This document shows positions 23,265-64,000 of a stretch of 64,000 nt of DNA, piece after piece. Within the stretch, counting starts at the first letter, position 1; each line of letters begins with the position of its first letter. The notes under the pieces are model-generated. The model did no database searches and was not told where the DNA came from. It saw nothing but the letters and a program-made list of their open reading frames with translations. The stretch is from an uncultured Actinomycetota bacterium (GTDB lineage: Bacteria > Actinomycetota > Actinomycetes > Actinomycetales > Dermatophilaceae): the NCBI GenBank assembly GCA_963843895.1, contig CAWJME010000004.1, positions 628-64,627 of the forward strand. The letters are read 5' to 3'. A program made the position numbers and the translations under genes.

Positions 23265-23280
23265 GCAGCCATGCTAGATC

Positions 23281-36644: not shown

Positions 36645-36745
36645 GCCTGTGGCAACACGCGGGCGCGCCCGATGGTTCCCCGGCCTCGACGACGAAAGGT
36701 CCTCGTGAGGTCCGGGGCGTCGGACGCCGTGGCTAGGCTCGCGCC

Positions 36746-40860: not shown

Positions 40861-40864
40861 GTGG

Positions 40865-40896
40865 GCATCCTCGCAGGCGTCGCTCTGCGAGGATGC
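40865..40896. promoter_or_regulatory. 12-bp perfect inverted repeat GCATCCTCGCAG-N8-CTGCGAGGATGC
   Basis: Read directly. Occupies most of the 40-nt gap between divergent start codons 40860 (-) and 40901 (+). Confidence 0.45.
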
Positions 40897-40900
40897 GGCC

Positions 40901-47014: not shown

Positions 47015-47155
47015 GGGGGAGGCCTCCGTCGTGGTGTGTCCCCAGCCTCCCGGGTGGCACCGCTGCACGTCGTCGTCCCACCGCAGACACCTGAGCCGTA
47101 CTGCGTCCGCAGTACGGCTGCCTGGGACGGCGCGGGCCGACGCACGGCGGCGCCC

Positions 47156-48995: not shown

Positions 48996-49164
48996 GGCAC
49001 GACGGTAGCGCGGCGCGGATCGGCGGCTCACCGACCACGAGTGCGCGCGTGCAGATGTGACCCGCGTCCTTGTGGGGCCGCGCGGCGAGGGAGACGCTGG
49101 AGGCAGGACGCGGGTGGCCCGCCACCGCGACCGCGCGGTGGGTGTCTCCGGAGAGGACGAACCC

Positions 49165-50052
49165 ATGAACCAGGACATGCTCGCCAAGATCCGGACCGGC
49201 ACCGGCTTCATCGCCGCCCTGGACCAGAGCGGTGGCAGCACGCCGAAGGCCTTGGAGCGCTACGGGATCGCCGGGTCGGCGTACAGCGACGAGGCCGGCA
49301 TGTTCGACCTCATCCACCAGATGCGGTCCCGTGTCATCACGAGCCGGGTCTTCACCGGGGACCGCATCCTCGCCGCGATCCTCTTCGAGCAGACCATGGA
49401 CCGGGAGGTCGAGGGCCTGGGCTCGGCCGAGTACCTCTGGACCCGCAAGCGCATCGTCCCCTTCCTCAAGGTCGACAAGGGCCTCGAGGGCGAGGCGCAC
49501 GGCGTGAAGCTGATGAAGCCCATGCCGGACCTCGACGCGCTCCTGGAGCGCGCCCGGGGCCACGGCGTGTTCGGCACCAAGATGCGCTCGGTGGTCCGTA
49601 CGGCGGACCCCGCGGGGATCGAGGGCGTCGTCGCGCAGCAGTTCGACATCGCCCGGCGCATCCTGGCCGCCGGGCTCGTGCCGATCATCGAGCCCGAGGT
49701 CGACATCCACAACCCCCGGAAGGCCGCGGCGGAGCAGCTGCTCAAGGCGACGCTCCTCACCCACCTCGACCGACTGAGCGAGGGACAGGACGTCATGCTC
49801 AAGCTGACGCTGCCCGACGTGGACGGGGACCACCGGGAGCTCCTCGACCACCCACGGGTCCTGCGCGTCGCCGCGCTCTCGGGCGGCTACTCCCGAGGTA
49901 CGGCGGTCGACCTCCTCGCACGGAACCCGGGAGTCATCGCCAGCTTCTCGCGCGCCCTCACCGAAGGCCTCACCGCCCAGATGTCCGACACGGAGTTCGA
50001 CGAGGCGCTCGACGCCTCCGTGGCGGCCATCTACGCGGCCTCCGCGACGTGA
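49165..50052 (+). CDS. fda: class I fructose-bisphosphate aldolase
   Basis: ATG 49165 is preceded by GGAGAGGA, in track ORF 49057..50052. GFIAALDQSGGSTPKAL, ILFEQTMDREVEG, VPFLKVDKGL, IIEPEV and LSGGYSR. Confidence 0.9.
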   Translation: MNQDMLAKIRTGTGFIAALDQSGGSTPKALERYGIAGSAYSDEAGMFDLIHQMRSRVITSRVFTGDRILAAILFEQTMDREVEGLGSAEYLWTRKRIVPFLKVDKGLEGEAHGVKLMKPMPDLDALLERARGHGVFGTKMRSVVRTADPAGIEGVVAQQFDIARRILAAGLVPIIEPEVDIHNPRKAAAEQLLKATLLTHLDRLSEGQDVMLKLTLPDVDGDHRELLDHPRVLRVAALSGGYSRGTAVDLLARNPGVIASFSRALTEGLTAQMSDTEFDEALDASVAAIYAASAT

Positions 50053-50069: not shown

Positions 50070-51953
50070 TCACACGACGACGCGCTCCCGCTCCGGTGCC
50101 GGCTCGACCTCGTCGGCCCACGCACCCGCCCGCGCCGCGGCGCGGCGCCGACGGACACCGACGGCCAGGGCCACGAGGGCGAGCCCGAGGAGGGCGGCGG
50201 AGAGTCCCTGCAGCAGCCCGCCGACGGGGGTGCGTGAGACCACCGTCGCCGGACGGGGGGCCGCGCCGCCCACCACCCAGGTGACCGACGACACGGCGTC
50301 GGGCAGACCGGGACGGACGACGACGACCCGCAGCGGGGTGGGTCCGGGGGTCTCGACGGTGAGCGGCACGCTCCAGCCCTCACCGGGCAGTCGCTGCCCG
50401 TCGCTCACCGTCACCGCGCCGCGGGCGTCGACCCGCTCCACCCGCACCGCGACCGGCCGCGGCGGCGCGGGACGGCGGCTGTCGAGCACGTCGACGACCG
50501 CGATGTTGACGCCGGGACGGTTCGGCTGCACCACGGTGTGCTCCGCGAGGTCGGCCGCGGTCGCGTCGACGGCGACGGACGGCGTGACGTCCCCGGCACT
50601 CGACAGCTCCGGCGCCGTCGCCGGCTGACCGCTCGACAGCAGGGCCGACATCGCCAGCGCCGCGACGAGCAGGCCGGACTCGGCAGCCACCGACCGCGGC
50701 GGACGAACCGCCGTCTCGGCCCGGGCCCAGCGGACGTGGCGCAGACCCAGGAGGGCGGCCACCGCGACCAGGGCCACCTTGAGGAGGAGGGTCCGCCCGT
50801 AGGTGGTGAGCAGGACGGCGTCGACCGAGGCCACGGCGGAGCTCGCGAGGAAGACCCCGGTCGTCGCCATGACGGCCACGGCGACGGCGGCCGGGCGGGC
50901 GAAGGACCGGATGACGGCACGGACCGCGGCGCGCGACACCTGTCCTCGGCGGGCGCCGGACGCGAGGACCACGGCCATCGCGACGCCGCCGAGCCAGGTG
51001 GTGGTCGCGAGCACGTGGAGGACGTCGGCGGCCAGCCGCACCGGCCCCACGGGGCTCACGGCGGCGTGCCCGAGGAGCGCCGTGCCGGTCCCCGCGGCGA
51101 CCGCACCGACGAGGACCAGGGGCCGTGACACCCGCCACCCCGCGCGGGCCAGGCCGAGGGCGACGGCGGCGAGGCCGACGGCACGCAGCCCCACCCGCAG
51201 GGCGTACCACCCGGTGAGCACCGTGCCGAGTGGCACGTCCGACCCGAGGGCCTGGACGAGGGGCAGGGCGACGCAGGCGAGCGTGGCGAGCACGACGACC
51301 GTGAGCACGGGACGGCGGGAGCGGGCGAGGACCGCGGTCGCGCCGGGTGACCCGGCCGCGAGCCGCACGACCAGCGCGTGACCGAGCCCGCCGGCGACGC
51401 CGAGCAGCGCGAGCCAGCGCAGGAAGGCCTGGTCGAGGGCGGCCGGCGCCTCGGTCCGTCCGGCGGGGGCGACCTGCTGTCCCACCCCGAACACGACGAC
51501 GGCCGTCGTCCGGTGCATGTCGTCGGCCGACAGGGTGTCGACGGTGAGCCGGTAGCTGCCGACGGGGAGGGTGCCGAGCACGGGGACGACGAGCGAGACC
51601 GGCGGCTCCTCCTCGACGACCGGGGCCGGGACGAGGCTCGGGGCGGTGGCCGGCTCCGGAGCGGGATCGGTGAGCTGCGCGGGTGCGTCCTCGGCCCGCG
51701 GGGCTCCGAGCGCCACCGGGGTGCCGTCGTGCCCGACGAGGACGACGTGGGTCGCGGGGAGGACGACGGCCTCGCTGAGCCGGAGGTGCAGCTCGTGCGG
51801 CGCCGAGGCGAGGACGCTGCCGTCGGCCGGGTCGCTCGAGACGAGGAAGGCGTGGGCCCGGGCCGCCCCGGCCGCGAGGACCGGGGCCGCGAGGACGAGC
51901 AGGGCCACCGCGCAGACCCGGAGGGCCCGGGCAGCGGGGGCGTGGCTCGTCAC
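50070..51953 (-). CDS. CopC-CopD fusion protein (YcnJ-like) with an extra C-terminal extracytoplasmic domain and terminal TM helix
   Basis: Track ORF. A signal peptide ends ...ARA, followed by HAFLVSSDPADGSVL (CopC N-terminal His motif). Then about 8 TM helices of CopD type, a soluble beta-rich segment and a final TM. The GTG start overlaps the upstream stop (GTGA). Confidence 0.8.
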   Translation of the reverse strand: MTSHAPAARALRVCAVALLVLAAPVLAAGAARAHAFLVSSDPADGSVLASAPHELHLRLSEAVVLPATHVVLVGHDGTPVALGAPRAEDAPAQLTDPAPEPATAPSLVPAPVVEEEPPVSLVVPVLGTLPVGSYRLTVDTLSADDMHRTTAVVVFGVGQQVAPAGRTEAPAALDQAFLRWLALLGVAGGLGHALVVRLAAGSPGATAVLARSRRPVLTVVVLATLACVALPLVQALGSDVPLGTVLTGWYALRVGLRAVGLAAVALGLARAGWRVSRPLVLVGAVAAGTGTALLGHAAVSPVGPVRLAADVLHVLATTTWLGGVAMAVVLASGARRGQVSRAAVRAVIRSFARPAAVAVAVMATTGVFLASSAVASVDAVLLTTYGRTLLLKVALVAVAALLGLRHVRWARAETAVRPPRSVAAESGLLVAALAMSALLSSGQPATAPELSSAGDVTPSVAVDATAADLAEHTVVQPNRPGVNIAVVDVLDSRRPAPPRPVAVRVERVDARGAVTVSDGQRLPGEGWSVPLTVETPGPTPLRVVVVRPGLPDAVSSVTWVVGGAAPRPATVVSRTPVGGLLQGLSAALLGLALVALAVGVRRRRAAARAGAWADEVEPAPERERVVV

Positions 51954-52507
51954 AGGACCGGGATGTGCGCCAGGGTCTGCCCCCCGTAGGACAGTGACGC
52001 GAACTCGTCCGCCTGGACCACTCCGCCGTTGCGGTAGACGAAGTAGTACGTCTGGCCCGCCGTCATCGTGTGCCCCTTCTTCATGAGCGCGACCGTGTTC
52101 GTCCGGGCGTCCCGCACCTCACTGCTCAGCACCGGGGGGTGCGTCGTGTCGGACTGGAAGGTCGTCGCGCGGGCGGGGTCGAGGCACAGGTAGTTCACCT
52201 GCACCAGGCCGCCGTCGCCGACGAGCGCGACGCGGGTGATCCGGATGCCGAGCTGGCTCTCCATGACGGCGTTGGTCGGCATCGGCGCGCCCGCGCTGGA
52301 CGGGTGCCGGGTGGCGAGGGCGACCGCGCCGGCGACGGCCAGCGCGAGGACGACCACGGCGACGACGATCCGTCGCCCGAGCGAGGGCGTCCGCCCAGGC
52401 ACCGGCCGGGCGTGCGTCGTGCCCCCGGCCCCTCCCGGCGGGAGGTCGGAGCCTCCCGCCGGAGCGGTCGATGCGCGGGTCGTCAGCGTGCTGCTCACCG
52501 GAGCCAC
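51950..52507 (-). CDS. membrane-anchored hypothetical protein (cytoplasmic tail, one TM, about 115-aa extracytoplasmic domain)
   Basis: Track ORF. GTG 52507 lies 1 nt after the upstream stop. TM helix IVVAVVVLALAVAGAVALA. Met/His patch ALMKKGHTM. No family recognised. Confidence 0.55.
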   Translation of the reverse strand: MAPVSSTLTTRASTAPAGGSDLPPGGAGGTTHARPVPGRTPSLGRRIVVAVVVLALAVAGAVALATRHPSSAGAPMPTNAVMESQLGIRITRVALVGDGGLVQVNYLCLDPARATTFQSDTTHPPVLSSEVRDARTNTVALMKKGHTMTAGQTYYFVYRNGGVVQADEFASLSYGGQTLAHIPVL

Positions 52508-52508
52508 C

Positions 52509-55500
52509 TCACCAGCGCTGGAGCTGGTCGAGGGACACGTACCCGGTGGGTCGGACGGCCGTGGACTGGTCGACCAGCCCCACCCGGATGCTCGTCGTGC
52601 CGGCGGCTGGTGTGCCGTTGCCGAGCTGCTGGACCCCGAGCAGGTTGCCGGTGGAGCCGTACACCGCCAGGGTCAGCTGCCCGGCTGTGCTGTCCATCGT
52701 CACCCGCACGGTGACGATGGCGGTGTTCCCGATGGTGATCGGGGTTCCCGTCGGGGTGGTCTGGCCCGCGAGCACCGGGGTGAGGGCCAGGCCCGCACCG
52801 CTGCCCGTCGCGACGACCGAGAACCGCGCCGTCGTGCCGGCGTAGCCCTGGTAGATCGTCACCCGCGTGCCGGTGGGTACGGCCAGGGAGTCACCACGCA
52901 GGGCGAACTGGGCGTTGGCCACCACGGTGGCCGGCGAGGCCGTCGGGCTGGTGAGGTACGCCGGGTTGGTGCCCCCGGTGGCCCGCACGTAGCCGGTGCC
53001 GACCATCCGAGGCTGCGTCGTCGACCGGGCGATGCCGTTGCCGCTCGTCTTGGCCCAGCCGGTCGGCGGGAAGGTGTTCCCGTCGAAGGTCTGGGTGTCG
53101 ACGGGCGTCGCGCTCACCGTCGCGGTGCCCGAGGCGGCCACGCTCCAGTTGCCGGCCTTGTCCTGCAGCCGCAGGTTGACCGTCGTCGAGCCGAGCAGGA
53201 GCTGGGCCCTGGGGATGGTGAACGTCGCCTGCGTCCCGGTGTAGGACACCGTGACCTTGGTGGCCCGCCCGACGCCCGGGTCGACGCTGCCGAACCACAC
53301 CTCCCCGCCGGTGATGTCGCTGGTCTGGGTGCCGCTGAGGGCCGCCGTGACCGTCACGGTGGCCGGGGACGACCCGGCGGTCGGCGTGACCGTGAGCGAG
53401 GAGATCACCGGCTTGACGGTGTCGACGACGAACGTGGCCAGGGTCGTCGCGCCCCAGTTGCCGGCCGCGTCCTGGCCGTAGACGTAGAGCTGGTGATCAC
53501 CCTGGGTCGAGGCCCAGGTCTTGACCTGGGAGAGGGGGACGAGTCCGTAGACGTTCTCGGTGCTCGAGTCGAAGGCCCCGTCGGTCGCCTGCAGCGTCAT
53601 GCCCTTGTGGGTGGCGGTCGGTGCGGCCGGGTCGTCGAAGAAGGCGACGGCCTGGACGATCCGGCTCGAGACGGTGCTGTTGTTCTGGCTGTCCTGGACG
53701 ATCGCGGTGACCTTGGCGAAGCCGGGGTTCGACGGGTCGCTGATGGCGCCGTTGAGGGCACTCGGGCTCATCGCCGAGGCGATGGTCACGGGGCCGACGA
53801 GGTCGACCGTGAACGGCACGTCGAGCAGGGGACCCCACAGGCCCTGGGTGTCCTTGCTGTGGACGAACACGTGGTGGTTGCCCTCGGCGAGCCCGGCGGC
53901 CGGCGGGATGGTCGCCGTCTCGGACGTGACGGTGCGTCCGGCCACGAAGGCGACCGGGGTGCCGGTGCCGTTCGTCGGGTCGGTGACGAAGGTCCCGTCC
54001 GGTTTGGTCGCCGGGTCGAGGAAGTACTCCGCACCGGTGATCTGCCCGCCGAACCCGCTGTCGTTGCCGGTGGCGGTGAGCTTCATCGACGTCGAGGCGT
54101 TGACCGGGTTGGGGGTGATGGCGCCGCTCGTGGTCAGCGGTCCCCGCTTCGGCACGTTGACGGCCACCGAGCCGAGCGTGCCCCACTTGTTGGCGTGGTC
54201 GCGTGCGCGGACGTAGATGACGTGGCGGCCGGCGGCGAAGCTCGGGTCGGCGAGCACCGAGGCCGGGATGGTCGCCGTGGCTCCGGTGACCGTCACGGCG
54301 CCGAAGCCGCCCGTCATCGCGATGCCGTTGCCGGGACCGATCGTCGTCGCGTCGTCGATGACGACCTCTGCGGCGTCGACGGTGCTGCCGCCGGTCGTGG
54401 CGTCGCTGAGGTCGGCCGTCACCGTCATCGGCGTCGTCGCGTCGGACGGGTTCGGATCCGCCGTCACGTGCGTCACGGCCGGACCGACGGTGTCGCCGAG
54501 GACCGGGGGCGCGTTGGTGTCGAGGAAGGTGAGCATGCCGCCGAACGCCGTCTGCGTCGGGTCGGCCGTGGTCATCGCGTTGTTGTCCAGGTGCGTCCCG
54601 GACTCGACGAGCGCGAGCTTGGCGTCGGCGCCGGTCGGGACCGTCACGATGGTGTCGGCCGTCTCACCGGGGGTGAGCGGCTCGACGACCTCGCCCACGG
54701 GGTAGGTGAGTGGGTGGCCGTCTCGGGCGACGGCGACCTGGTCCGAGCCGAGGACGCTCATCGCGTGCGGCAGCGCGCCGAGGTCGGCGTAGCGCAGCAG
54801 CAGGCGGTGGCCCTGGTCGGTGGGGATGACGTCGGTCTCGGGGAACGCCTTGCCGTTGACCAGCCGGTACCGGGGGTTGAAGCCCCGCATGTCGAAGCCC
54901 GTGGGGTCGGCGTTGAGGGCGGGGTCGATCTCGCCGAGGGCCACGACCGACTCGTCCACGAACGCCGATGCCGGGGTGCCGTAGGCGGTCGTCCCGTCCG
55001 CCGGACGCACGATGAGCACGCCGGCGAGGCCCATGGCGACCTGCCGAGCGCCGTCGGCGGTGTGCCCGGCCTCGTAGACGAAGGTGCCGGGGCGGGAGGC
55101 GTGCAGCGTGAAGGTACCGGTCTGTCCGGCGTCGATGCCGGTCGTTGCCGTGGAGGCGTCGAAGCCATGCGTGAGGTCGGCGGCGGGGATGCCGGGAACG
55201 GCGAGCGACAGGGGTGCCGCGAGCTCGTTGTGCACGATGAGGTCCACCGTCGAGCCCTGGTCGACCACGAGGAGGGGGCCGGGCAGCGTCGGGTTGCCGG
55301 TCGGCGCACCGGACCAGCCCCAGATGGGGATCTTCCGGGTGACGACGGTCACCGTCCCGGCGCGTGCGTAGAGGTCACAGGTGGCGGTCGTCCCGGTGGT
55401 CGAGCACCCCTGGGCGCCGAGGTGTCCGCTGCCCGCAGCCGCGAGGGCCGGCGCGGCGGCGCCCGCGGCGGCCGTCGTCGTGCGGGCGAGGTGCCCGGTG

Positions 55501-55610
55501 AGGGTCGCCGCGGCGGCGGGTGAGGTCGAGGCCAGCCCGGCGGCGAGCAGCACCGCCGTCGCCAGTGCCGCCACTCGGGAGGCACCCATGGCTCGTGTTC
55601 GCGTGGTCAT
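52509..55610 (-). CDS. secreted multicopper-oxidase-like protein lacking copper ligands, followed by tandem Ig-like modules and a C-terminal beta-rich domain (1,033 aa)
   Basis: ATG 55610 in track ORF 52509..55895. Signal peptide. The two cupredoxin-like domains are clearly paralogous to the 55631..56974 product (LPGPLLVVDQGSTVDLIVHNEL, GLAGVLIVRPA, PRYRLVNGKAF, FGGMLTF). Confidence 0.75.
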   Translation of the reverse strand: MTTRTRAMGASRVAALATAVLLAAGLASTSPAAAATLTGHLARTTTAAAGAAAPALAAAGSGHLGAQGCSTTGTTATCDLYARAGTVTVVTRKIPIWGWSGAPTGNPTLPGPLLVVDQGSTVDLIVHNELAAPLSLAVPGIPAADLTHGFDASTATTGIDAGQTGTFTLHASRPGTFVYEAGHTADGARQVAMGLAGVLIVRPADGTTAYGTPASAFVDESVVALGEIDPALNADPTGFDMRGFNPRYRLVNGKAFPETDVIPTDQGHRLLLRYADLGALPHAMSVLGSDQVAVARDGHPLTYPVGEVVEPLTPGETADTIVTVPTGADAKLALVESGTHLDNNAMTTADPTQTAFGGMLTFLDTNAPPVLGDTVGPAVTHVTADPNPSDATTPMTVTADLSDATTGGSTVDAAEVVIDDATTIGPGNGIAMTGGFGAVTVTGATATIPASVLADPSFAAGRHVIYVRARDHANKWGTLGSVAVNVPKRGPLTTSGAITPNPVNASTSMKLTATGNDSGFGGQITGAEYFLDPATKPDGTFVTDPTNGTGTPVAFVAGRTVTSETATIPPAAGLAEGNHHVFVHSKDTQGLWGPLLDVPFTVDLVGPVTIASAMSPSALNGAISDPSNPGFAKVTAIVQDSQNNSTVSSRIVQAVAFFDDPAAPTATHKGMTLQATDGAFDSSTENVYGLVPLSQVKTWASTQGDHQLYVYGQDAAGNWGATTLATFVVDTVKPVISSLTVTPTAGSSPATVTVTAALSGTQTSDITGGEVWFGSVDPGVGRATKVTVSYTGTQATFTIPRAQLLLGSTTVNLRLQDKAGNWSVAASGTATVSATPVDTQTFDGNTFPPTGWAKTSGNGIARSTTQPRMVGTGYVRATGGTNPAYLTSPTASPATVVANAQFALRGDSLAVPTGTRVTIYQGYAGTTARFSVVATGSGAGLALTPVLAGQTTPTGTPITIGNTAIVTVRVTMDSTAGQLTLAVYGSTGNLLGVQQLGNGTPAAGTTSIRVGLVDQSTAVRPTGYVSLDQLQRW

Positions 55611-55630
55611 CGTCAGTCGTCCCCTCGGGC

Positions 55631-56974
55631 TCACGTGCAGCCACCCGGAGGGTCGATGCGGTACACCGTCATCATCCCGCCGAAGGTTGCGCCGTAGTTG
55701 GTGGCCTGCTGCAGTGCGTGGCTGTGGGCGATGTGGTAGTACTCGCCGCACTGGTTGTTGTCGGTGATGTAGGTGGGCACGTTGCCCTTGACCCCGAGGT
55801 AGGGGCTCTCGCTGAACCAGGTGTCGGTGCCGACGAGGAGCTGGTCGGTGATGGCCGGCAGCCGGGTCGGGATCTGGTTCGTGGTGGGGTTCCACTGGTC
55901 CACGTCGGTCCAGACCATGGTCGCGTCGAGGCTCTGGCCGGGCTGCACGTCGAGGTCGAACTTGTTGTAGGACAGGTCCTCACCGTTCCCACCGCGCGTC
56001 GGGTGGCCGTCGATGTTGACGATGCGCTCGTCGCTGCCGTGCGGGTGGAACGGGTAGTTCTCCGTCCCGGCGTTGAGGTAGCGGATCAGCGCGGGCCGAG
56101 GGGTGTCCGCCGGGGACGGCTGGATGTGCACCAGCGCCCCGTAGGGCTGGGCCGGCAGCCACGACGCGTGGTTGGGAGCCAGCGTGTCCGGCATGCTCCG
56201 GCCGTTCATCATGAAGTACCGCGGCTTGTACGAGGCCCAGTCGGGGGTCTCGCCGCGCTCCACCGCGAGGTGGATGTCGGGGTCGATCTCGGAGAGCACG
56301 AAGAGGTACTCGTGGTTCGTGTCGAAGGTCGTCCCGCTGTCGGTCACCTGGTCGGCGTGACCCGCCGGGCGGACCACGAGCGCCCCGAACAGACCCATCT
56401 GGGTCTGCTTGTTGACGTCGGTGCCGGAGGAGTAGAGGTAGGTGCCGGGCGCGCCGGCCGTGAAGGTGTAGGTCATCGACCCGTTCGTCGCCTCGGCGGG
56501 CTGGACGAGCGAGGTCAGCGTGCCGGTGGAGGAGAACTGGGGCTGCGCGGGGTTGCCCGCGGCCTTCACCCCCGTCTGGCCGTGGAAGACGATGGACACC
56601 GGCTCGGTCAGCGTGTTGTGCAGGATCACCGTCACCGCCTCGCCGGAGTTCACGCACAGTGTCGGGCCGGGCAGCTGGAAGCCGTGTCCCGCCCCCTCGT
56701 TCGCGAAGCCCCACGAATAGATCGAGTTGCCGTCCGGGGTCGAGATGTCCCCCGTCCTGGTGCCGAGCGTGAACGTGTTGTTCGTCGCGGTGTCGCAGGC
56801 GATGCCCTCGGCGGGGTAGTCGCCGGCGTGGGCCGCGGTCTGCGCGGTCACGGCGACCCCGAGCGCGAGCACCGCGGCGGCGCCGCCGGCGAGGAGCCGC
56901 CGGCCGGTCCGGGTGCGGGGGGCCCGCGGGAGCCGCCGGGACTCCCCGGGCGGGGTGGCAGAGTGCCTTCTCAT
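55631..56974 (-). CDS. Tat-signal two-domain multicopper oxidase family protein; His ligands only in the C-terminal domain (HPH and HSH), no type-1 Cys
   Basis: Track ORF, 447 aa. RRLLAGGAAA twin-arginine motif. FHPHG (His310/312) and HIAHSH (His414/417/419). The N-terminal domain has VSIVFHGQTG in place of HWHG. Confidence 0.8.
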   Translation of the reverse strand: MRRHSATPPGESRRLPRAPRTRTGRRLLAGGAAAVLALGVAVTAQTAAHAGDYPAEGIACDTATNNTFTLGTRTGDISTPDGNSIYSWGFANEGAGHGFQLPGPTLCVNSGEAVTVILHNTLTEPVSIVFHGQTGVKAAGNPAQPQFSSTGTLTSLVQPAEATNGSMTYTFTAGAPGTYLYSSGTDVNKQTQMGLFGALVVRPAGHADQVTDSGTTFDTNHEYLFVLSEIDPDIHLAVERGETPDWASYKPRYFMMNGRSMPDTLAPNHASWLPAQPYGALVHIQPSPADTPRPALIRYLNAGTENYPFHPHGSDERIVNIDGHPTRGGNGEDLSYNKFDLDVQPGQSLDATMVWTDVDQWNPTTNQIPTRLPAITDQLLVGTDTWFSESPYLGVKGNVPTYITDNNQCGEYYHIAHSHALQQATNYGATFGGMMTVYRIDPPGGCT

Positions 56975-56990
56975 CGTCGTGTCTCCCCAC

Positions 56991-58307
56991 TCACAGGTTC
57001 GGTTGGGACTGGGCAGGGAGGGTGCCCGGCGGGACGACGCTGATCTTCGTCATCATCCCGCCGTAGCCGGTGCCTCCGCCGTTGTTGAGGAAGCTGTACC
57101 GGCGGTCGTAGAACAGGTACTCGCCGACCGCCGGAGCGGTGAAGATGACGTCCCGGCTCTCACCCGGGCCGATGTCCACCGTGTTCGTCGTGAGGTAGTT
57201 CGACACCGCTCCGTTGCGCAGCAGGCTCGCGTCCTCGGCGACGACGGTGAGGTCGATGTCGTCGCAGGTGAGCGAGTGGTCCTGGAAGCCCAGGCTCGCC
57301 AGGCGCACGAGCACCTTCTCGCCGGGCATGCACGTGATGTGCGACGAGTTCGGCTGGTACTGCAGGCGGCCGCTCACCGTGTCGAGGTCGGGACGGTACT
57401 GCAGACCGCCGTCGGCGCGGGTCACCGAGCTCGCACCGTTCGGGGCGTAGGTGTCGGGGTAGGCGCGGCCGTTCATCAGCCAGAACGAGGCGTCGAAGTC
57501 GGTCCAGTCACTGACCTGGATGTGTGCGTCGCGGTAGTGGGCCGCCGACCACAGCTCGGTGACGATGATGCCGAACTCGCGGTCGTAGCGGGTCGACCCG
57601 TCGCCGTCGTTGTAGGCGTACGTCGTCCCGACGGGGTCGGTGCCGACCGGGTGGGCGTTCTGCCTCGGTCGCACCCACACCATTCCCGACATGCCCATCT
57701 GCACGTGCTCGACGTCCTCGAAGTGGCAGTGGTACATGTACGTCCCGGCGTCGTGCGGCTTGTAGAAGTAGTCGAACCGGCGGCCCACGGGCACCGAGAG
57801 CGACAGCTCGGGGACGCCGTCGAAGAGGGGGATGGCGTTCTGGAAGCCGTGCCAGTGCATGGTGTGGCCGTCGAAGAGGTCGGGCCGCTGCGAGAGGCCG
57901 AGGTTGTACAGGCTCAGCGTGATCTCGTCCTCCTCGTCGAAGACGAGGATCGGGGCCGAGATCTGGGCCTTGCCGCGCTGGGCGGCCAGGTCCGCGTCGC
58001 TGAGGCCGGAGACGTCCCGGAACCCGAACACGTAGGTGTTGAAACCGGGCGGGGCGAGGGGGTCGGGGAAGAAGGGCGGGTCGGCCGGCGCCGTGTCCGG
58101 CATCGAGACCCAGCCGTCCGTGCCGGCGAGGGCGAGGGACTTCGTCGGCCCGGTCCCGACCTTCGCCGCCTGCACGACGGCACCGCGAGCGGTCTGCGGG
58201 GCCACGACCCGGGCGGCCGCGACGAGGCCTCCGGCTCCGAGGGCACCCAGCAGGACGCGACGACGGTCCACGGTGAATGTGCTCATGGTGTGCTCCTGCT
58301 GCGTCAT
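56991..58307 (-). CDS. Tat-signal two-domain multicopper oxidase family protein; type-1 site and half of the trinuclear-cluster ligands in the N-terminal domain only
   Basis: ATG 58307 overlaps the upstream stop (ATGA). An alternative ATG at 58286 is preceded by CAGGAG. DRRRVLLGALGAGG Tat motif. GHTMHWHG and YHCHFEDVEHVQMGM. Lies in track ORF 56991..59096. Confidence 0.8.
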   Translation of the reverse strand: MTQQEHTMSTFTVDRRRVLLGALGAGGLVAAARVVAPQTARGAVVQAAKVGTGPTKSLALAGTDGWVSMPDTAPADPPFFPDPLAPPGFNTYVFGFRDVSGLSDADLAAQRGKAQISAPILVFDEEDEITLSLYNLGLSQRPDLFDGHTMHWHGFQNAIPLFDGVPELSLSVPVGRRFDYFYKPHDAGTYMYHCHFEDVEHVQMGMSGMVWVRPRQNAHPVGTDPVGTTYAYNDGDGSTRYDREFGIIVTELWSAAHYRDAHIQVSDWTDFDASFWLMNGRAYPDTYAPNGASSVTRADGGLQYRPDLDTVSGRLQYQPNSSHITCMPGEKVLVRLASLGFQDHSLTCDDIDLTVVAEDASLLRNGAVSNYLTTNTVDIGPGESRDVIFTAPAVGEYLFYDRRYSFLNNGGGTGYGGMMTKISVVPPGTLPAQSQPNL

Positions 58308-61300
58308 GGGGTGGCCTGGGCGGCGCCGGCGTCGTACCGGGTTCCGGTGGGTCGGGGGGCTCCGTGCAGGTCCGTCGGGGGAGCGGTGACGAACACGGGG
58401 CTGGTCCCGTAGGCGACCGCCATCCGCTGTGTCCCGATGCCGATGGCCGGGGACCCCGGCGCGAGGTCGACGTTCCCCAGGAGGCTGTACGGCAGCACGG
58501 GGGTGACGATCGCGGCTTGTCGGAACGCGGGGAACTGCCGCGAGGCGAGGACGTTCACGGCGATCTGGAAGTCCTGGCGGACGCCCACCGCGTTGACCGA
58601 GTCGGGCCCCTGGACGTTGCCCGAGCCGACCGTGTCCGTCGCGTTCTGGTACCACGTGCTGTTCATCTGCAGCTGCAGCCCGTGGGGGTTGTCGGCGACT
58701 CCGACGTCCCACCGGTTGGCGTCGGCATCGGTGATGCCGCTCTCGAGGCCGCCGTAGTAGGTACCGGCGTAGTTGTCCGAGAAGACGTTGTCGAACATCG
58801 TCGGGCTGGCCACGGCGGTGCCGTCGTGCAGCATCGTCGCGAAGCCGGGCTGGCTCGCGAGCCGGGCGATGAGCGGGTCGCTCAGGGTCCCGGTCGAGAG
58901 GCCGGCCGGTGCCGGGAGGCCGTTGCTCGTCAGGGCTGTCGCCGTCGTGATGTTGCGGACGACGGTGTTGTCGACGATGTTCACGAAGGCCGCGTCGTCG
59001 AGCGCGATGCCGCCACCCTCGTGGGCCGACACGTTGTTCGCGATGTCGTTGTTCGTGATGCCGATCGTGTCGGTGACGACCTGGTTCGCGGGGCACGTGG
59101 TGACACCGCGTCGCGTGGTGCAGTTCGGGGTGGCGACGTGCGAGCCGGACGTCTGGAGCAGCCGGATCCCGCCGCCGTCGTCGTTCGCGAGGTTGGCCTG
59201 GATGACGTTGGCGTCGATGGAGACCGGACCGCTGCCGGCGCTCAGCGCGTCGGGGGTGGCGGGCAGCTCACCGGCGACCATGATGGCGCCGCCCTCGTCG
59301 TAGGACTGGTTGAACCAGATCCGGTTGTGGTCGATGGAGTTCTTCGCACCGAACGTCGCGTTCGTGTTCTGGTAGCCGAAGGACGTGATCGCGCCGCCGT
59401 ACTCGGAGGAGTGGTTGCCGCAGATGGCGTTGTGGTCGACCGAATACCCGTCGGACCCGGTGAAGAGCCCGATGCCGCCCGCGAGGTTGGTGCCACCGTT
59501 GTCGCGGATCTGGTCGTGCGAGATCACCGCGCCGTAGTTCTGGTTGTTCCCGACGTACGGCGTCCCGATCCGGATGGCGCCGCCGAACGAGCCGCTGTTG
59601 CCGTCGAAGACGTCGTTGGTCAGGTGCAGGCCCTGGACCTGCTGGTGGGCGTAGACTCCGCCGCCCTGGGTGACGAGCGAGCCTCCGGCGCCGACCGGGG
59701 TCGAGACGGCCCCGGTGACCGCGTTGGCGGCCGTGGCGATGTTGGCCTGCGAGCCGTTGCGGATGCGCAGGCCGTCGAGCGCGACCGGCCAGACCTGGTT
59801 GGGCGACCCCGTCGCCGGCGGCTGGTGCGTCCCGGCCAGCGGCGCGAGGACGGTGACGTCCGCCGCGTCGGGGACCTCGGCCAGTCCTCGGTAGGCCTGG
59901 CGGTTCACCGCCGCGAGCCAGTTCGTGCCGCTCGGGAGGTCGAGGTCGAACCCGGTGCCGTCGATGATCGACCCGGCGACGAAGGTGCCGGCGTCGTCGA
60001 AGCCACCGGGCCCCACGCCCTGGATGCGCACCTGGTTGTGGACGACGATGTTCTCGTTCCAGTCACCCTGCGGGTTGCTCGCGGTCTGGGTGTTCGGCCA
60101 GACGACCACCGCGTCGTACTGGCGGTCGGCGGTGGGCCGGGCTGCGTCGAGTGCCGCCTGCACCGTCTTGTAGGCCTTCGTCGGACCGACCTCGTAGAGC
60201 CTGGGGTTGTTCTGCGTCGCCCCGGTGCCGGTGGTGTTGAGCGCGAGCAGCGACAGCGTGTTGTACGCCGCGGTCCCCGACGAGCTCTTCAGGGTCAGCT
60301 GGAGCGCGCCGGCGAGCTTCTGGTTGGCACCGTACGTCGCGGGCACCGTGAAGACGATCTTCCGGGGGCTCCACGACGTGACCGTCGCGGGGACCTCGGG
60401 CATGGAGGTGACGAGGGGGTCCTTGAGGGTGAGCGTGCCCTTCGTCGTCCCGAAGCCGTACCCGGTGAGGGTCACCGACCGGTTGGCGCCGGTGGTGCCG
60501 AGCACGTAGGGCGTGCTCACCGACAGCAGCTGGGGCGTGGTGTCCGGGAGGTTGCACACGGTGTTGTCGGCCACCGCGCCGTCCGGGGTGAGGACCGTCG
60601 CCGCCGCCTGGGTCGGCGCCTGGTCGGTCACCGTGTAGAGGCCCGGCCAGCCCTGGAAGTTGGCCGCGATGGTCCGGAACCTCGAGTTGTAGTCGGCGTT
60701 CAGCGCGCCCGGCGCACCGGGGTCGTTGCCCACCGTTCGGTACATGTTCGGGCACGGACCCGCGGGGACCGGACAGTTGTAGGTGTCGGTCGAGGGCATG
60801 AGCGCCTCGTACATCCCGTTGAAGTCGGTGTGCGCGGTGTAGTCGAGCCGCCCGGCCCAGTCGTAGAAGCCGACGGGGACGAAGGGCAGGCCCTGGGCCT
60901 CGCCGTAGCCGATCGAGCGGGTGTCGAGGGTGAGCCCGAGGTCGTTGATCGTCAGGCCCCAGAAGTGGGTCGGGACCGGGACCTCGGTGAAGAGGTTGAA
61001 GTTCGGCGCCACGGTCTGGCCGGAGCGCACCGTCACGAGCTTGTCGGCGCACGACGGCATGTCGTAGCCCTCGAACGGTGAGCCACCGGCGGCGTTGAAG
61101 TCCGGGTTGTAGGTACCGGGGACGGGGTCCCTCGGGTCGTCGAGCGGCAGGCTGCGCACGTGGACGGTGTGCAGCGGGCCGACGCAGGAGGAGATGATGC
61201 CGGCCTGCTGCGACGGCGGCTGCGAGGGGGGAGTGGGGGTGGCGGACGGCGGGTCGGCCGGGTTGTCGGCAGCCGCCTGCGTGGACGGCGGGAAGTTCTC

Positions 61301-63760
61301 CTGCGGCAGGTAGGTGTCACCGGTGAAGACGTTGACGTCCTCCTCGGAGGTCACCTTGTACATCGGGCGGTCGCCGACCGGGGTCCTGGGGATGTCGACG
61401 CTCACGATGTAGTCGCCGGCGGCCATCCCGCTGAACCCGTAGTTGCCGTTGACCGACTGCGCGCCCGAGGTGTCGTTGACGCCGGCCTGGAAGCCCATCA
61501 TCGGCGACTCGACGCACGCCTGGTTGGCGTCCACCCCGAACTCCGGGAGGGCCTGCTGGATGCTGGAGTCGAGGACCGACCCGTCCCACTGCCGGCCGGT
61601 GCACCCGCGGGGGGCGCCCCAGGTCTCGGAGGTGTAGGCGTCGGTGACCTCGGGGCCCTTGACGAACGCACCGCGTTGCGGGTCGGGGTTGGTCGCGCCG
61701 TTCACCGTCAGCGGCACGATCTCCTTGCCCTGCCGGCACTCGTTGGCGACGTCGACGGCGTAGGTGTCCGAGGTCTTGTCCGTGACCGCGCACGGCGTCG
61801 AGGTGAAGAGGTGGACGGTCACGCCGGGGATGCCGGGCTGGTAGGCCTCGCTCGCCGCGTCGGCGGCGTCGAGCTCGTTGCGGGTCGTGTCGTAGCTGAT
61901 CGTCGCCGCGATACCGCCGTTCTCGGTCTGGTCGTACGGCCGCACGCCCCAGTCGACGGTGCCGTGGAGCCCGATGATCGGCAGCACGTTGAGGTCGACC
62001 ATCTGGCCGAGCTGCGTGGTCGGCGTGGGGTCGTTGTCGCCCTGCCACGTGACGCCGGTCGTCGCGTAGCGGGTGTTGAAGGCCTCGAGGACCAGGTACT
62101 TGGCCATCGGGTAGCCCTCACGGATGTCGAACTCGCCCGCGTCGTTCGTCGTCACGGTGTTCGTCGCCTGGTCCATGAGTGTGTTGTCGCGCTCGCGCAG
62201 GGTGAGGGCGAAGCTCGGCACGCCCTGCTCGCCCGGGTCCCGCACGCCGTTGCCGTTGTCGTCGATGAAGACGTGGCCCGAGAAGTGCGAGAACCAGCCG
62301 ACGAGCATCTGCTGCCCGACGTCGGTGTAGCCGCCCGAGCCGCTGTGCGCCGCCGCGTCGACCTCCGCGTTGAAGCTCATGATGATGTAGTCCTGGTCGT
62401 CGTCCCAGAGGGTGACCTGGTAGCTGCCGTCGGCGACGCCGTCGATGGAGAACGTGCCGTCGGAGCGGGCCTGCGCGAGGTACACCTCCTGGTCGCCGTT
62501 GTTCAGGTCGGACAGTGCGACCCAGACGTTCTTGAGGCGGGCGCCGATCTTCGTCCCGGCGACGCCCTCGGGCCCGACGACCCCGTTCTGGCCGCCGATG
62601 TAGGGCAGGCCCTGGACGACGACGCCCTTGATGCCGCCCGGCCGGGTCGTGTCCGTCGCCGACGGGGCGAGGGCCATCGACTTCGTGAAGCCGAACTGGG
62701 TGGCCGGCACGGGCTCCTGCCCGCGCAGCTGCTCGGTGTCGAGGCCGGTGTCGCCCTCCTGGACCCAGATGTCGTGGTCGTGCCCGCCCTCGAGGGTGGT
62801 CGTCTGCACCCAGCGCCGGCCGCCGGTGAGGGCGGGGGCGGCGACCGTGGCGGCATAGCGGTTCGGGCCGAGGTTCGGGATCCTGATGACGCCGTGGGAG
62901 TCGCTGTCGCAGCCCGGAGCCTTGGTCGTGTCGACGACCGGCTTGTTGTTCGCGTCGAAGACGATCGGGCTGCCGGGGTCCGCGGGTGCGGTGTGGACGT
63001 AGTTCGTGCACAGCGCGTTCCCGTAGTAGTCGACGCTCACCGCGCCGAAGACGTCGGTGAGGTGGGCGCGGAAGTGGGACATGTCCACGCCGTTCTCGGC
63101 GTCGACCTCGTAGGTGCCGTCGACCGGCGCGTAGTCGTCGTAGACCTGGATCTGGATGGTCGCCAGCGGTAGGGGGGTCGGGTTCAGCCCGACGCTCAGG
63201 GTCTGGGTGGTGCCGTCGACGGTGAAGTGCGCGCCGTCGATCTTGTAGCCGGAGGCCTTGACCGAGATGAGGTACTTCCCACCGGGGAGGTCGAGGCTCT
63301 TGCCGGCCGCGAAGTCGCTCTGGTCGCCCTCCGCGATGATCGGGGCGAACCCGGACGTCGCCCGGGTGCTCGGCCACGGGCAGGTGTCGGCGAACGCGGG
63401 GTCGGTGGAGTGCGCCCCGGCGGCCGTCGAGGGGAGGCAGCTCGACAGGAGCGGGTCCTTGGCGGTGCCCGGGTTCCCGGTGTCGTCCGCGTTGATGATC
63501 CACTCGTAGCTCGTCACGGGGTCCCCGGCGTTCGGCTTCACCGCCTTCTTGGCCGGGTTGACGTCGCGCGCGCTGACGACGCCGAGCCGGATCGCCCCAG
63601 CGGCGTACGTCGGGGCCGTCCAGGCCGCCGGAGCGGCGGCCTGCACCGCTGCCCCCAGTGCGGATGCCCCGGCCGTACCCAGCACGGTGATCGGGACCAC
63701 GGCGACCGCCAGGACTGCTGCGAGCCGGCCGAGGGGAAGGATTCGTCGAGCCCTGCGCAT
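58304..63760 (-). CDS. giant secreted protein (1,818 aa): N-terminal Cna-B/SdrD-B/carboxypeptidase-regulatory-like beta-sandwich modules, Pro-rich linker, C-terminal right-handed parallel beta-helix region
   Basis: ATG 63760 is preceded by AGAGGGAG, in track ORF 58304..63856. Signal peptide MRRARRILPLGRLAAVLAVAVVPITVLG. FIDDNGNGVRDPGEQGV SdrD-B-like motif. Repeated GG(A/G)I(x)(x) PbH1-like turns in the last ~640 aa. Confidence 0.75.
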   Translation of the reverse strand: MRRARRILPLGRLAAVLAVAVVPITVLGTAGASALGAAVQAAAPAAWTAPTYAAGAIRLGVVSARDVNPAKKAVKPNAGDPVTSYEWIINADDTGNPGTAKDPLLSSCLPSTAAGAHSTDPAFADTCPWPSTRATSGFAPIIAEGDQSDFAAGKSLDLPGGKYLISVKASGYKIDGAHFTVDGTTQTLSVGLNPTPLPLATIQIQVYDDYAPVDGTYEVDAENGVDMSHFRAHLTDVFGAVSVDYYGNALCTNYVHTAPADPGSPIVFDANNKPVVDTTKAPGCDSDSHGVIRIPNLGPNRYAATVAAPALTGGRRWVQTTTLEGGHDHDIWVQEGDTGLDTEQLRGQEPVPATQFGFTKSMALAPSATDTTRPGGIKGVVVQGLPYIGGQNGVVGPEGVAGTKIGARLKNVWVALSDLNNGDQEVYLAQARSDGTFSIDGVADGSYQVTLWDDDQDYIIMSFNAEVDAAAHSGSGGYTDVGQQMLVGWFSHFSGHVFIDDNGNGVRDPGEQGVPSFALTLRERDNTLMDQATNTVTTNDAGEFDIREGYPMAKYLVLEAFNTRYATTGVTWQGDNDPTPTTQLGQMVDLNVLPIIGLHGTVDWGVRPYDQTENGGIAATISYDTTRNELDAADAASEAYQPGIPGVTVHLFTSTPCAVTDKTSDTYAVDVANECRQGKEIVPLTVNGATNPDPQRGAFVKGPEVTDAYTSETWGAPRGCTGRQWDGSVLDSSIQQALPEFGVDANQACVESPMMGFQAGVNDTSGAQSVNGNYGFSGMAAGDYIVSVDIPRTPVGDRPMYKVTSEEDVNVFTGDTYLPQENFPPSTQAAADNPADPPSATPTPPSQPPSQQAGIISSCVGPLHTVHVRSLPLDDPRDPVPGTYNPDFNAAGGSPFEGYDMPSCADKLVTVRSGQTVAPNFNLFTEVPVPTHFWGLTINDLGLTLDTRSIGYGEAQGLPFVPVGFYDWAGRLDYTAHTDFNGMYEALMPSTDTYNCPVPAGPCPNMYRTVGNDPGAPGALNADYNSRFRTIAANFQGWPGLYTVTDQAPTQAAATVLTPDGAVADNTVCNLPDTTPQLLSVSTPYVLGTTGANRSVTLTGYGFGTTKGTLTLKDPLVTSMPEVPATVTSWSPRKIVFTVPATYGANQKLAGALQLTLKSSSGTAAYNTLSLLALNTTGTGATQNNPRLYEVGPTKAYKTVQAALDAARPTADRQYDAVVVWPNTQTASNPQGDWNENIVVHNQVRIQGVGPGGFDDAGTFVAGSIIDGTGFDLDLPSGTNWLAAVNRQAYRGLAEVPDAADVTVLAPLAGTHQPPATGSPNQVWPVALDGLRIRNGSQANIATAANAVTGAVSTPVGAGGSLVTQGGGVYAHQQVQGLHLTNDVFDGNSGSFGGAIRIGTPYVGNNQNYGAVISHDQIRDNGGTNLAGGIGLFTGSDGYSVDHNAICGNHSSEYGGAITSFGYQNTNATFGAKNSIDHNRIWFNQSYDEGGAIMVAGELPATPDALSAGSGPVSIDANVIQANLANDDGGGIRLLQTSGSHVATPNCTTRRGVTTCPANQVVTDTIGITNNDIANNVSAHEGGGIALDDAAFVNIVDNTVVRNITTATALTSNGLPAPAGLSTGTLSDPLIARLASQPGFATMLHDGTAVASPTMFDNVFSDNYAGTYYGGLESGITDADANRWDVGVADNPHGLQLQMNSTWYQNATDTVGSGNVQGPDSVNAVGVRQDFQIAVNVLASRQFPAFRQAAIVTPVLPYSLLGNVDLAPGSPAIGIGTQRMAVAYGTSPVFVTAPPTDLHGAPRPTGTRYDAGAAQATP

Positions 63761-63870: not shown

Positions 63871-63930
63871 CAAGCAAAAGGCAAAAACCCACAGCAGCGC
63901 GCAACGCTGACGACAGCGGGCTGTGGGTTT
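63871..63930 (-). terminator. intrinsic terminator for a minus-strand gene lying beyond the right window edge
   Basis: Stem AAACCCACAGC / GCTGTGGGTTT (63885-63895 / 63920-63930). On the minus strand it is followed by TTTTTGCCTTTTGCTT. Confidence 0.6.
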
Positions 63931-64000
63931 GCTGTCAGGTTCCGGTGAGGTTCGGCCCCCGCGCCGTTCGGAGGCGCGCCGCCGACGGGTCTCGGGCCCC

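Follow-up and report, generated by a model that had tools for sequence, protein, structure and literature searches.

A conserved multicopper oxidase, probably heterotrimeric and tethered to a giant adhesin-like protein, encoded by a six-gene operon of an uncultured Dermatophilaceae bacterium

Multicopper oxidases (MCOs) are textbook single-chain or homotrimeric enzymes. Those with two domains are trimers whose trinuclear cluster (TNC) is built by residues of two protomers (PMC13151041). Three tandem extracellular MCO genes and a copper chaperone were reported by He et al. (2017) in Sideroxydans lithotrophicus ES-1 (PMC5566968). In this strain, Slit_1817 and Slit_1818 present MCO motifs and Slit_1816 is a larger, motif-less protein with adhesin- and polysaccharide-lyase-like domains; a 2025 proteomic study detected higher amounts of Slit_1816-1818 in late magnetite cultures than in cultures on Fe(II)-citrate and stated that Paraburkholderia and Ralstonia harbor clusters of a similar kind (AEM 2025; PMC12016527 / PMC11429942). 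Here, we analyzed a stretch of 64,000 nucleotides from an uncultured Actinomycetota bacterium of the Dermatophilaceae (assembly GCA_963843895.1, contig CAWJME010000004.1), referred to as the window, in which six minus-strand genes between positions 50070 and 63760 encode a giant protein, three MCO-like proteins (mcoA, mcoB and mcoC, or A, B and C), a small membrane-anchored protein and a CopC-CopD fusion.

This locus resembles the Slit_1812-1818 cluster in several respects. Both encode two proteins with MCO motifs and a much larger cupredoxin protein without them, followed by small hypothetical proteins; all are predicted to be extracellular, and each cluster includes a copper-handling gene. 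The genera named for Slit-like clusters are also those in which we found A, B, a fused C-giant protein and the small protein. However, the C module and the giant protein form one polypeptide in Proteobacteria, whereas the window encodes them by two genes with the giant gene first, and the copper partner of the Slit cluster is SCO1/SenC with a cytochrome, whereas the present system pairs a CopC-CopD fusion with a two-component system of its own. The complementary-ligand logic described below, which would make the oxidase an obligate heteromer, is absent from the ES-1 paper. The novelty of the cluster has to be qualified: its architecture is already in print for S. lithotrophicus ES-1, and it is the actinobacterial form that we did not find published. 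Our literature searches returned no publication on this form, on the complementary ligands, on the C-giant fusion, on the small protein as a core component or on the TGAC operator, and no heteromeric or heterotrimeric two-domain MCO. One published "heterotrimer" was discarded as a candidate, being an alpha-alpha-alpha' proteolytic variant of one gene product and not a heteromer. Earlier work thus already noticed the family of the enzyme and one cluster with this architecture; the assembly logic and the Gram-positive configuration are undescribed.

We propose that this operon encodes an extracytoplasmic, obligately heteromeric MCO machine and not a set of independent oxidases, with the ring, copper supply and control set out below, and we give this reading a probability of roughly 0.6. 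The six open reading frames (ORFs), read directly from the window, are as follows:

58304-63760, minus strand: G1, the giant protein, 1818 aa
56991-58307 (alternative start 58286), minus strand: mcoA, 438 aa
55631-56974, minus strand: mcoB, 447 aa
52509-55610, minus strand: mcoC-Ig (G4), 1033 aa
51950-52507, minus strand: G5, the small protein, 185 aa
50070-51953, minus strand: G6, the CopC-CopD protein, 627 aa

The three MCO-like proteins all match the Pfam family Cu-oxidase_3, and mcoA additionally matches Cu-oxidase_2 and Cu-oxidase. Their sequence matches in the PDB are MCOs and NirK, and none of the three reaches the curated cut-off of any NCBIfam family. mcoA consists of two cupredoxin domains preceded by a twin-arginine translocation (Tat) signal of the type S-R-R-x-F-L, in which the arginines R15 and R16 are invariant. 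Its closest PDB sequences are the type-C-like two-domain MCOs 3g5w and 2zwn, and Foldseek also returned MCOs, with these two-domain enzymes among the best fold matches. mcoA and mcoB are paralogues that align along both domains (hhalign probability 99.9; E = 1e-33; 285 columns). The copper ligands of the two proteins lie in four highly conserved motifs:

57849-57866, minus strand: mcoA H148-T-M-H151-W-H153, type-1 Cu histidine and HxH pair, conserved at 99% in 81 sequences
57690-57731, minus strand: mcoA H193-C194-H195...H201...M206, Cys/His/Met of the type-1 Cu site and two type-3 Cu histidines, conserved at 100% in 81 sequences
56039-56047, minus strand: mcoB H310-P-H312, conserved at 100% in 77 sequences
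55718-55726, minus strand: mcoB H417-S-H419, at the HCH position with Ser or Asn for Cys, both histidines conserved at 100% in 77 sequences

The profile alignment of A and B revealed that the ligand positions have been reciprocally lost. Domain 1 of mcoA holds HTMHWH and HCHFEDVEHVQMGM, which provide the type-1 Cu site and four TNC histidines, and its domain 2 contains no HxH at the positions where mcoB presents FHPHG and HSH. In mcoB, every ligand of domain 1 is gone and domain 2 is devoid of a type-1 Cu site, but this domain retains two HxH pairs that amount to the complementary four TNC histidines. In the alignment, FHPHG corresponds to the HxH that the Nitrosomonas enzyme 3G5W has in domain 2, and the middle residue of H417-x-H419 is S or N in 21 of 21 aligned sequences, never Cys. 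mcoA thus has its type-1 Cu in the N-terminal domain of a two-domain MCO, as in type C of the classification given in PMC13151041, but domain 2 of the same protomer does not contribute the second HxH pairs. All eight TNC histidines and the type-1 site were not found in any one polypeptide; the full set exists only in A and B jointly. The original prediction, drawn from the window alone, had labeled these proteins MCO subunits A and B, and the labels are right in a stronger sense than was stated, since neither protein has the residues to form a TNC alone. Given the geometry of two-domain MCOs, in which each TNC lies between domain 1 of one protomer and domain 2 of the neighboring one, the split ligands imply that a complete active site would arise only at the interface of domain 1 of A with domain 2 of B. 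This interface would be the sole complete catalytic unit, and neither A nor B is predicted to make an active site alone.

The third paralogue was described by the original prediction as a ligand-less MCO-like protein with immunoglobulin (Ig) repeats, and this description is accurate. mcoC is composed of a two-cupredoxin core without ligands, then Ig-like repeats and a C-terminal domain:

54516-55433, minus strand: two-cupredoxin core of mcoC, approximately aa 60-365

The core matches Cu-oxidase_3 (Pfam; E = 5.6e-10), and its best PDB match is 2ZWN, to which residues 106-324 align over positions 29-243, spanning both domains. No HxH or Cys ligand columns are present in the core alignment. In two relatives (L074, 12626-13489, and L080, 12679-13533; Nonomuraea and Sphaerisporangium), the alignment of mcoC stops just past the two cupredoxin domains, and a small-protein gene lies within about 90-310 nt after the core in L074 and L080. 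In these two loci, mcoC appears to lack the Ig-like repeats and the C-terminal domain. If so, the Ig stalk would be dispensable and the essential part of mcoC would be its core.

The simplest closed assembly would then be an A-B-C pseudo-trimer with six cupredoxin domains and one catalytic unit. Such a pseudo-threefold ring with a single active site would present a ceruloplasmin-like arrangement, and the Ig-like stalk of mcoC would connect it to the 1818-aa adhesin-like G1. On this basis, we consider the system to be a conserved MCO that is probably heterotrimeric and tethered to the giant protein.

We then evaluated the conservation of the block. One genome per species was scanned in Actinomycetota and Chloroflexota using two mcoA peptide patterns, which yielded at least 568 confirmed relatives; the locus counts given here rest on 80 loci kept out of these matches. 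All six genes were found in 57 of the 80 loci, and in all 57 they are colinear. Wherever the contig leaves room, mcoA, mcoB and mcoC are never missing; G5 was undetected in two loci and CopC-CopD is absent from three. The loci are spread over many actinobacterial orders and the Chloroflexota. In most of them, the genes at the A-B, B-C and G5-G6 junctions are at most 25 nt apart or overlap by 4 or 1 nt (the B-C junction is a 4-nt overlap in 31 of 74 loci), and the G1-A and C-G5 junctions are looser than these three. ORFs resembling a subtilase (Peptidase_S8) gene that follows CopC-CopD in a Chloroflexota locus (L076, 18008-20569, plus strand) occur somewhere within 43 of the 80 loci.

Direct reading of the window also bore out the gene order and all five junctions of the original prediction: six co-directional minus-strand genes joined, in gene order, by an ATGA overlap at 58304-58307, gaps of 16 nt (containing GGGGAG), 20 nt (containing GAGGGGA) and 1 nt (position 52508), and a GTGA overlap at 51950-51953. 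The gene calls of a metagenomic contig that is 99.4% identical to the window across 20.5 kb (L081) place other starts for three of the genes. For mcoA, the called start is the second ATG (58286), which has AGGAG upstream at 58293-58297 and turns the ATGA overlap into a gap of 17 nt; mcoC would start 21 nt further inward, and G5 at the GTG at 52498, leaving a 10-nt gap. The GTGA overlap is therefore the only junction that is unambiguous as to starts, but every gap measures at most 41 nt under any choice of starts. No terminator-like site was seen on the coding strand within the operon. The tightly packed unit that had been predicted is thus present in the window and kept in relatives. Because the block is colinear in 57 of 57 loci, keeps its tight junctions and has no internal terminator-like site, the operon is real beyond chance: it is a real and widely conserved unit. 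Its downstream boundary is a convergent gene:

49057-50052, plus strand: convergent class-I aldolase-like gene bounding the operon (Pfam Glycolytic; also called on L081)

This gene had been named fba, and its convergent position is as predicted; its identity as a class-I aldolase is marginal (Pfam, 23.6 bits against a cut-off of 22.2 bits). The G+C content of the window is about 73%, and the closest named relative by mcoA is Phycicoccus duodecadis (86% identity).

G1, the secreted giant protein, presents a Sec-type signal peptide, Ig folds of the SdrD_B and CarboxypepD_reg-like types, GGxI repeats, a C-terminus of the choice-of-anchor Q type and, weakly, a match to TIG. It had been called a beta-helix protein, which Pfam did not verify, even for sub-fragments at E <= 1: we obtained only sub-threshold GGAI/PMP-type repeats and the choice-of-anchor Q match. 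A beta-helix fold is plausible. Comparison of orthologues delimited its most conserved stretch:

60614-61066, minus strand: most conserved stretch of G1, approximately aa 899-1049

Averaged over 30-residue blocks, the residues of the window protein in this stretch recur in 69-84% of 66 orthologues, and no Pfam family was found for it at E <= 1. These approximately 150 aa bear conserved Cys pairs.

A protein search of plasmid and chromid records (72,556 plasmid records) identified homologues with about 35% identity in Cupriavidus metallidurans CH34, Ralstonia and Paraburkholderia. Two of these proteobacterial clusters were analyzed:

3268-23334: cluster L084, on the C. metallidurans CH34 chromid NC_007974.2
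13512-25416: cluster L085, Paraburkholderia

In CH34, an A-like gene is followed by a B-like gene, a single ORF of 2698 aa and a G5 homologue. The A-like protein presents HFH and HCHx5Hx4M; the B-like protein has no domain-1 ligands and presents HPFHEHG and HSH. The N-terminus of the 2698-aa protein is a C-like module without ligands and the remainder is homologous to G1, which matches the C-terminal ~1900 aa in three segments (E = 1e-30, 1e-25 and 6e-24). Paraburkholderia presents the same arrangement with a fused ORF of 2723 aa, and every gene is annotated "hypothetical protein". In both Cupriavidus and Paraburkholderia, the gene of the fused giant protein is immediately followed by an ORF for a G5 homologue (respectively, E = 1e-12 and 1e-9; profile search of about 200 ORFs of the two loci), and no CopC-CopD homologue was found at these loci. 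The CH34 cluster is located directly downstream of type II secretion/type IV pilus-like genes encoding a GspE-type ATPase, a secretin and two pseudopilins.

That C and the giant protein are naturally fused in these genera argues for a physical cooperation of the two. To judge from these homologues, A, B, C, the giant protein and G5 constitute a pan-phylum core, to which the monoderm lineages have added CopC-CopD and the regulator. The predicted six-gene unit therefore holds across phyla for its A/B/C/giant/small-protein core, and CopC-CopD and the regulator are lineage-specific.

G5 consists of an N-terminal membrane anchor helix and a beta-sandwich domain, modeled by AlphaFold2 with a predicted local distance difference test score (pLDDT) of 80. 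No Pfam or NCBIfam family matched it, although the family comprises 987 representatives at 50% identity. A Foldseek search of the model against the PDB returned nothing significant (best E-value 0.017), and weak fold matches to PmoB/AmoB-like proteins were discarded as not significant. The idea that G5 is a copper chaperone acting through M142-x3-H146 was weakened by the lack of conservation of this histidine in proteobacterial homologues. G5 is a conserved fifth component that may serve as an anchor or an assembly factor.

The last gene of the operon encodes both copper-handling domains:

51483-51854, minus strand: CopC domain of G6 (Pfam CopC)
50622-51425, minus strand: CopD domain of G6 (Pfam CopD)

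They are followed by a conserved extracytoplasmic domain and a final transmembrane helix. The copper brace of CopC (H34, which follows the A-x-A cleavage site, and H147 in the DDxH motif) is conserved at 95-98% in 60 sequences, and the CopD histidines H296 and H313 at 98% in the same number of sequences. YcnJ-type proteins act in copper acquisition, and YcnJ supports copper acquisition for oxidases in Bacillus subtilis (PMC13344008, PMC12154828). G6 had been assigned to the YcnJ type, which holds for the CopC-CopD fusion with its brace and CopD histidines; the third domain, YtkA, was not detected by Pfam in the whole protein at E <= 0.01 or in its C-terminal 187 aa at E <= 1. With the Cu(II) histidine brace and the CopD histidines conserved at 95-98%, the predicted coupling of the oxidase with a CopC-CopD protein is upheld. 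We suggest that in Actinomycetota the fusion supplies copper through its brace and membrane site. The invariant twin-arginine signal implies that mcoA is probably exported folded. A plausible metallation route would be the import of copper into the cytoplasm by CopC-CopD and its loading into mcoA before Tat export.

The region upstream of G1 presents several elements read directly from the window:

63871-63930, minus strand: hairpin AAACCCACAGC ... GCTGTGGGTTT with a T-rich tract, the only minus-strand terminator-like match
63922-63949, minus strand: putative response-regulator boxes CTCACC/CTGACA/CCCACA with 11-bp spacing
63912-63917: inverted GCTGTC following the boxes

The hairpin had been read as an intrinsic terminator of the preceding gene that insulates the operon upstream. 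We compared the region with L028, the closest relative for which upstream sequence is available (87-91% DNA identity), whose homology extends to window position 63958. In L028, the gene upstream of G1 is a divergent OmpR-type response regulator, followed by a HisKA kinase (Pfam). The alignment indicates that the window ends about 70 nt short of the start codon of the regulator. The fold energy of the hairpin is ordinary (z = -0.45), two positions of its stem are broken without compensation in L028, and the third box unit coincides with its 5' arm. Rfam returned no credible match to the leader or the hairpin, and a scan for a sigma-70 consensus promoter found nothing. Because the regulator is divergent, the fold ordinary, the stem uncompensated and Rfam without a match, we read 63871-63949 as a promoter/operator and not as a terminator; the terminator reading falls on its divergent neighbor, its z-score, its stem that is not kept and its overlap with the operator repeats. 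The hairpin more probably belongs to a divergent promoter/operator region.

The absence of a regulator noted by the original prediction is likewise an artefact of the window edge, as most actinobacterial relatives possess an adjacent OmpR-type regulator and kinase. The pair is divergent and adjacent in 36 loci; it is co-directional upstream in a few and downstream in a few, in Kribbella it lies between G5 and G6, and it is absent from the Chloroflexota loci. Pfam confirmed the regulator (receiver and winged helix) and the HisKA kinase in L028 and L005. The kinase of L028 (2264-3607, minus strand) and its orthologues are without a large extracytoplasmic sensor domain, and the membrane-embedded N-terminus of this type of kinase presents the conserved motifs PG-ET-P-H and W-E-x2-E-P, which could form a sensing site at the membrane interface.

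The intergenic regions of the relatives contain direct repeats of (G/C)ATGAC(N)G in 11-bp phasing, often followed by an inverted GTCAT. A count of 9-mers in these regions was uninformative, and the TGAC repeats emerged on reading the sequences. TGAC-N7-TGAC occurs 46 times in 10.5 kb of intergenic sequence versus 4 times in 2 x 718 kb elsewhere (~1500-fold), on the operon strand only, and it is present in 30 of the 36 intergenic regions between the regulator and the giant gene. The spacing of the repeats peaks at 11, 21-22 and 32-34 bp. These patterns suggest that the TGAC repeats likely represent an OmpR/PhoB-type operator of the adjacent regulator, such that the two-component system would probably control transcription of the operon through these 11-bp-phased repeats.

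Several points weigh against the heteromeric machine that we propose. The A-B-C ring draws on the ligand distribution and the geometry of homotrimeric relatives. The AlphaFold2 monomer of mcoA is poor (pLDDT 56 from a 20-sequence alignment) and received a coarse Foldseek check only, so we drew no conclusion on the interface from it. The window was likened to Slit_1816-1818 by its architecture and by the published statement on Paraburkholderia and Ralstonia, not by sequence alignment. G5 does not keep its candidate metal ligand H146 in proteobacterial homologues. A two-component system beside the operon in the genome of the window is itself inferred from L028, and the TGAC boxes of the window are degenerate, with just one exact TGAC.

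Two of the alternatives deserve consideration. The better of them, which we regard as unlikely, is that A and B form a catalytic heteromer without C, the core of C being a decayed relic and mcoC-Ig and G1 merely co-expressed adhesins or structural proteins. This would fit the confinement of the ligands to A and B and the lower conservation of the C core (mean column identity of 46%, against 72% for A and 53% for B). However, C is never absent where the contig allows its detection, and B and C overlap by 4 nt in the 31 of 74 loci mentioned above. The cupredoxin core is the part of C that L074 and L080 appear to keep, and the fused giant protein of Proteobacteria still carries it N-terminally. 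Moreover, the known two-domain MCOs close their ring with three protomers. These observations favor the A-B-C assembly over an A-B pair.

The second alternative is a monoderm version of the copABCD-RS/pcoABCDRS resistance systems, in which the MCO is a Cu(I) oxidase, CopC-CopD are in charge of copper handling and excess copper is the signal of the two-component system; the giant protein and the Ig domains would then be surface copper-binding or protective accessories. The list of parts counts in its favor and against our reading, since an MCO, CopC, CopD and an OmpR-type two-component system are those of copABCD-RS/pcoABCDRS. The best NCBIfam match of the L005 regulator is also a heavy-metal regulator subfamily, although below its cut-off (171 vs 279 bits). 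More generally, the two-component system falls below every named-family threshold (TIGR01387, 116-171 vs 279 bits; TIGR01386, 48-88 vs 293 bits). We nevertheless consider resistance to be more doubtful still than an A-B pair. A, B and C contain no Met-rich segment (at most 4 Met per 30 aa, in a stretch that coincides with the ligand motif), and scores for CopA/CueO-type NCBIfam families remain far below cut-off (TIGR01480 copper_res_A, 26-34 vs 479 bits); a canonical CueO/CopA oxidase was rejected. CopC presents the conserved Cu(II) brace and no Met-rich stretch for Cu(I), like importer-type proteins. The proteobacterial core keeps A, B, C-giant and G5 without CopC-CopD, no actinobacterial plasmid copies were found among the 72,556 plasmid records, and the context in the window is one of chromosomal housekeeping genes. 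Finally, split ligands, a ligand-less third subunit and an adhesin have no obvious use in Cu(I) detoxification.

These results agree with the earlier statements that the operon is not a canonical cop/cue system, given that none of the six proteins reaches an NCBIfam copper-resistance cut-off and that no Met-rich segment was found in an MCO, and that no Met-rich CueO-type oxidase is present among the three MCO-like proteins. No P-type ATPase turned up in our scan of 20 larger ORFs outside the operon, which did not extend to several other large ORFs of the window or to the small ones of CopZ/CsoR size; the predicted absence of a P-type ATPase from the window therefore stands for these 20 ORFs. 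As for the remaining alternative, that the six genes are adjacent yet functionally independent and that A and B are each ordinary homotrimeric two-domain laccases, a signal peptide and a possible ribosome-binding site can be assigned to every one of them, but this is highly improbable and contradicted by the ligand counts, as A and B are each without the eight TNC histidines that a homotrimer needs, the gene order is strictly kept across phyla and the coding strand has no internal terminator-like site.

The substrate is the least certain part of our analysis. By analogy, the likeliest candidate would be an insoluble or polymeric extracellular electron donor bound by the giant protein, such as mineral Fe(II), Mn(II) or a phenolic/humic compound; we make this guess because the S. 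lithotrophicus cluster is more abundant in late magnetite cultures. We tentatively suggest, as a possibility well short of an even chance, that soil Actinomycetota and Chloroflexota carry a "split ceruloplasmin", a heterotrimer on a giant adhesin that would keep the enzyme close to an insoluble substrate, such that these monoderm heterotrophs might oxidize solid Fe(II)/Mn(II) minerals or humic polymers with O2. If true, this would represent a Gram-positive counterpart of the magnetite-linked Sideroxydans cluster with its own copper importer and sensor system. An obligate heteromer with a TNC split over two gene products and a ligand-less third closing the ring would be a new quaternary solution among MCOs. 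The system is also broad: at least 568 matches among species representatives, thousands of metagenomic homologues and relatives in Betaproteobacteria, with every component annotated merely generically or as hypothetical. That an iron oxidizer has more of a similarly built cluster on solid magnetite points to a possible way in which abundant soil bacteria oxidize extracellular minerals or polymers, and the operon offers a clean case of copper delivery to a secreted enzyme with a predicted operator.

Just beyond the aldolase-like gene, the window encodes a NarL/LuxR-type response regulator, a HisKA_3 kinase with DUF7134 and an ABC ATPase (46058-49259, minus strand). This two-component/ABC module is separate and probably has no relation to the operon; the calls of L081 give its kinase and regulator as one product of 580 aa. 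A stop-to-stop ORF at 21726-23273 (minus strand) carries an EPSP-synthase domain and, in the same frame, an N-terminal HTH_3 domain (XRE-type), and is either an uncommon fusion or the result of reading two neighboring genes as one. A LigD-type primase-polymerase/ligase gene is located at 36737-38911 (plus strand) and a PPK2 polyphosphate kinase gene at 40787-41887 (plus strand). The other genes of the window are housekeeping genes, including aconitase, DXP synthase, sulfite/nitrite reductase, fatty-acid oxidation genes and ferrochelatase.

The locus can finally be compared with other characterized systems. The sco-ecuc-SLI_4212-dtpA operon of Streptomyces lividans, which serves GlxA, brings together copper chaperones, a putative copper transporter and an oxidoreductase exported by Tat for the maturation of an extracytoplasmic copper oxidase (PMC4736821), a theme shared with the window. 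It differs in that its enzymes are a copper radical oxidase and a DyP peroxidase, that SLI_4212 is dispensable and that it includes neither MCO paralogues nor a giant protein. The ycnKJI operon of B. subtilis encodes YcnJ (CopC-CopD-YtkA) and YcnI, a membrane-anchored Cu(II)-binding DUF1775 protein. The window shares with it the CopC-CopD fusion with its brace, a small membrane-anchored extracytoplasmic protein encoded alongside and, as we propose, a role in supplying copper to extracytoplasmic oxidases. In contrast, YtkA was not detected in G6, and G5 does not belong to DUF1775, has its anchor N-terminally and accompanies the oxidase/giant core, not CopC-CopD. A YcnK-type repressor was not found beside the operon, where relatives have the two-component system. 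With copABCD-copRS and pcoABCDRS, the present system has in common an MCO, CopC, CopD and an OmpR-family two-component system. It differs from them by the absence of a Met-rich MCO and of CopB/PcoB, the fusion of CopC with CopD, the splitting of the oxidase into three paralogues, the giant adhesin-like partner, the chromosomal site and the existence in other phyla of a core without CopC-CopD.

Geobacter OmpB/OmpC and Leptothrix MofA, compared here by description, are MCO-type proteins of large size that bear adhesion-type domains and work outside the cell on insoluble metal phases, and Bacillus Mnx is an MCO able to work as a multi-subunit complex. In all of these, the MCO ligands lie within one polypeptide, and the accessory subunits of Mnx are not known to be cupredoxin paralogues. 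The type C two-domain MCOs, represented by the N. europaea blue copper oxidase (3G5W) and the metagenomic mgLAC (2ZWN), have their type-1 Cu in the N-terminal domain, like mcoA. However, 3G5W and 2ZWN are homotrimers in which each protomer carries both TNC halves, whereas in the window the halves are on two gene products and a third paralogue has none. With the six-domain MCOs of the ceruloplasmin type, the predicted outcome is shared: a ring of six cupredoxins, which we infer in the present case, with one TNC and ligand-less or degenerate domains. Ceruloplasmin reaches this outcome with one polypeptide and several type-1 Cu sites, whereas the window would do so with three polypeptides and one predicted type-1 site. 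Such a split MCO would be a living intermediate between the two-domain and the six-domain MCOs.

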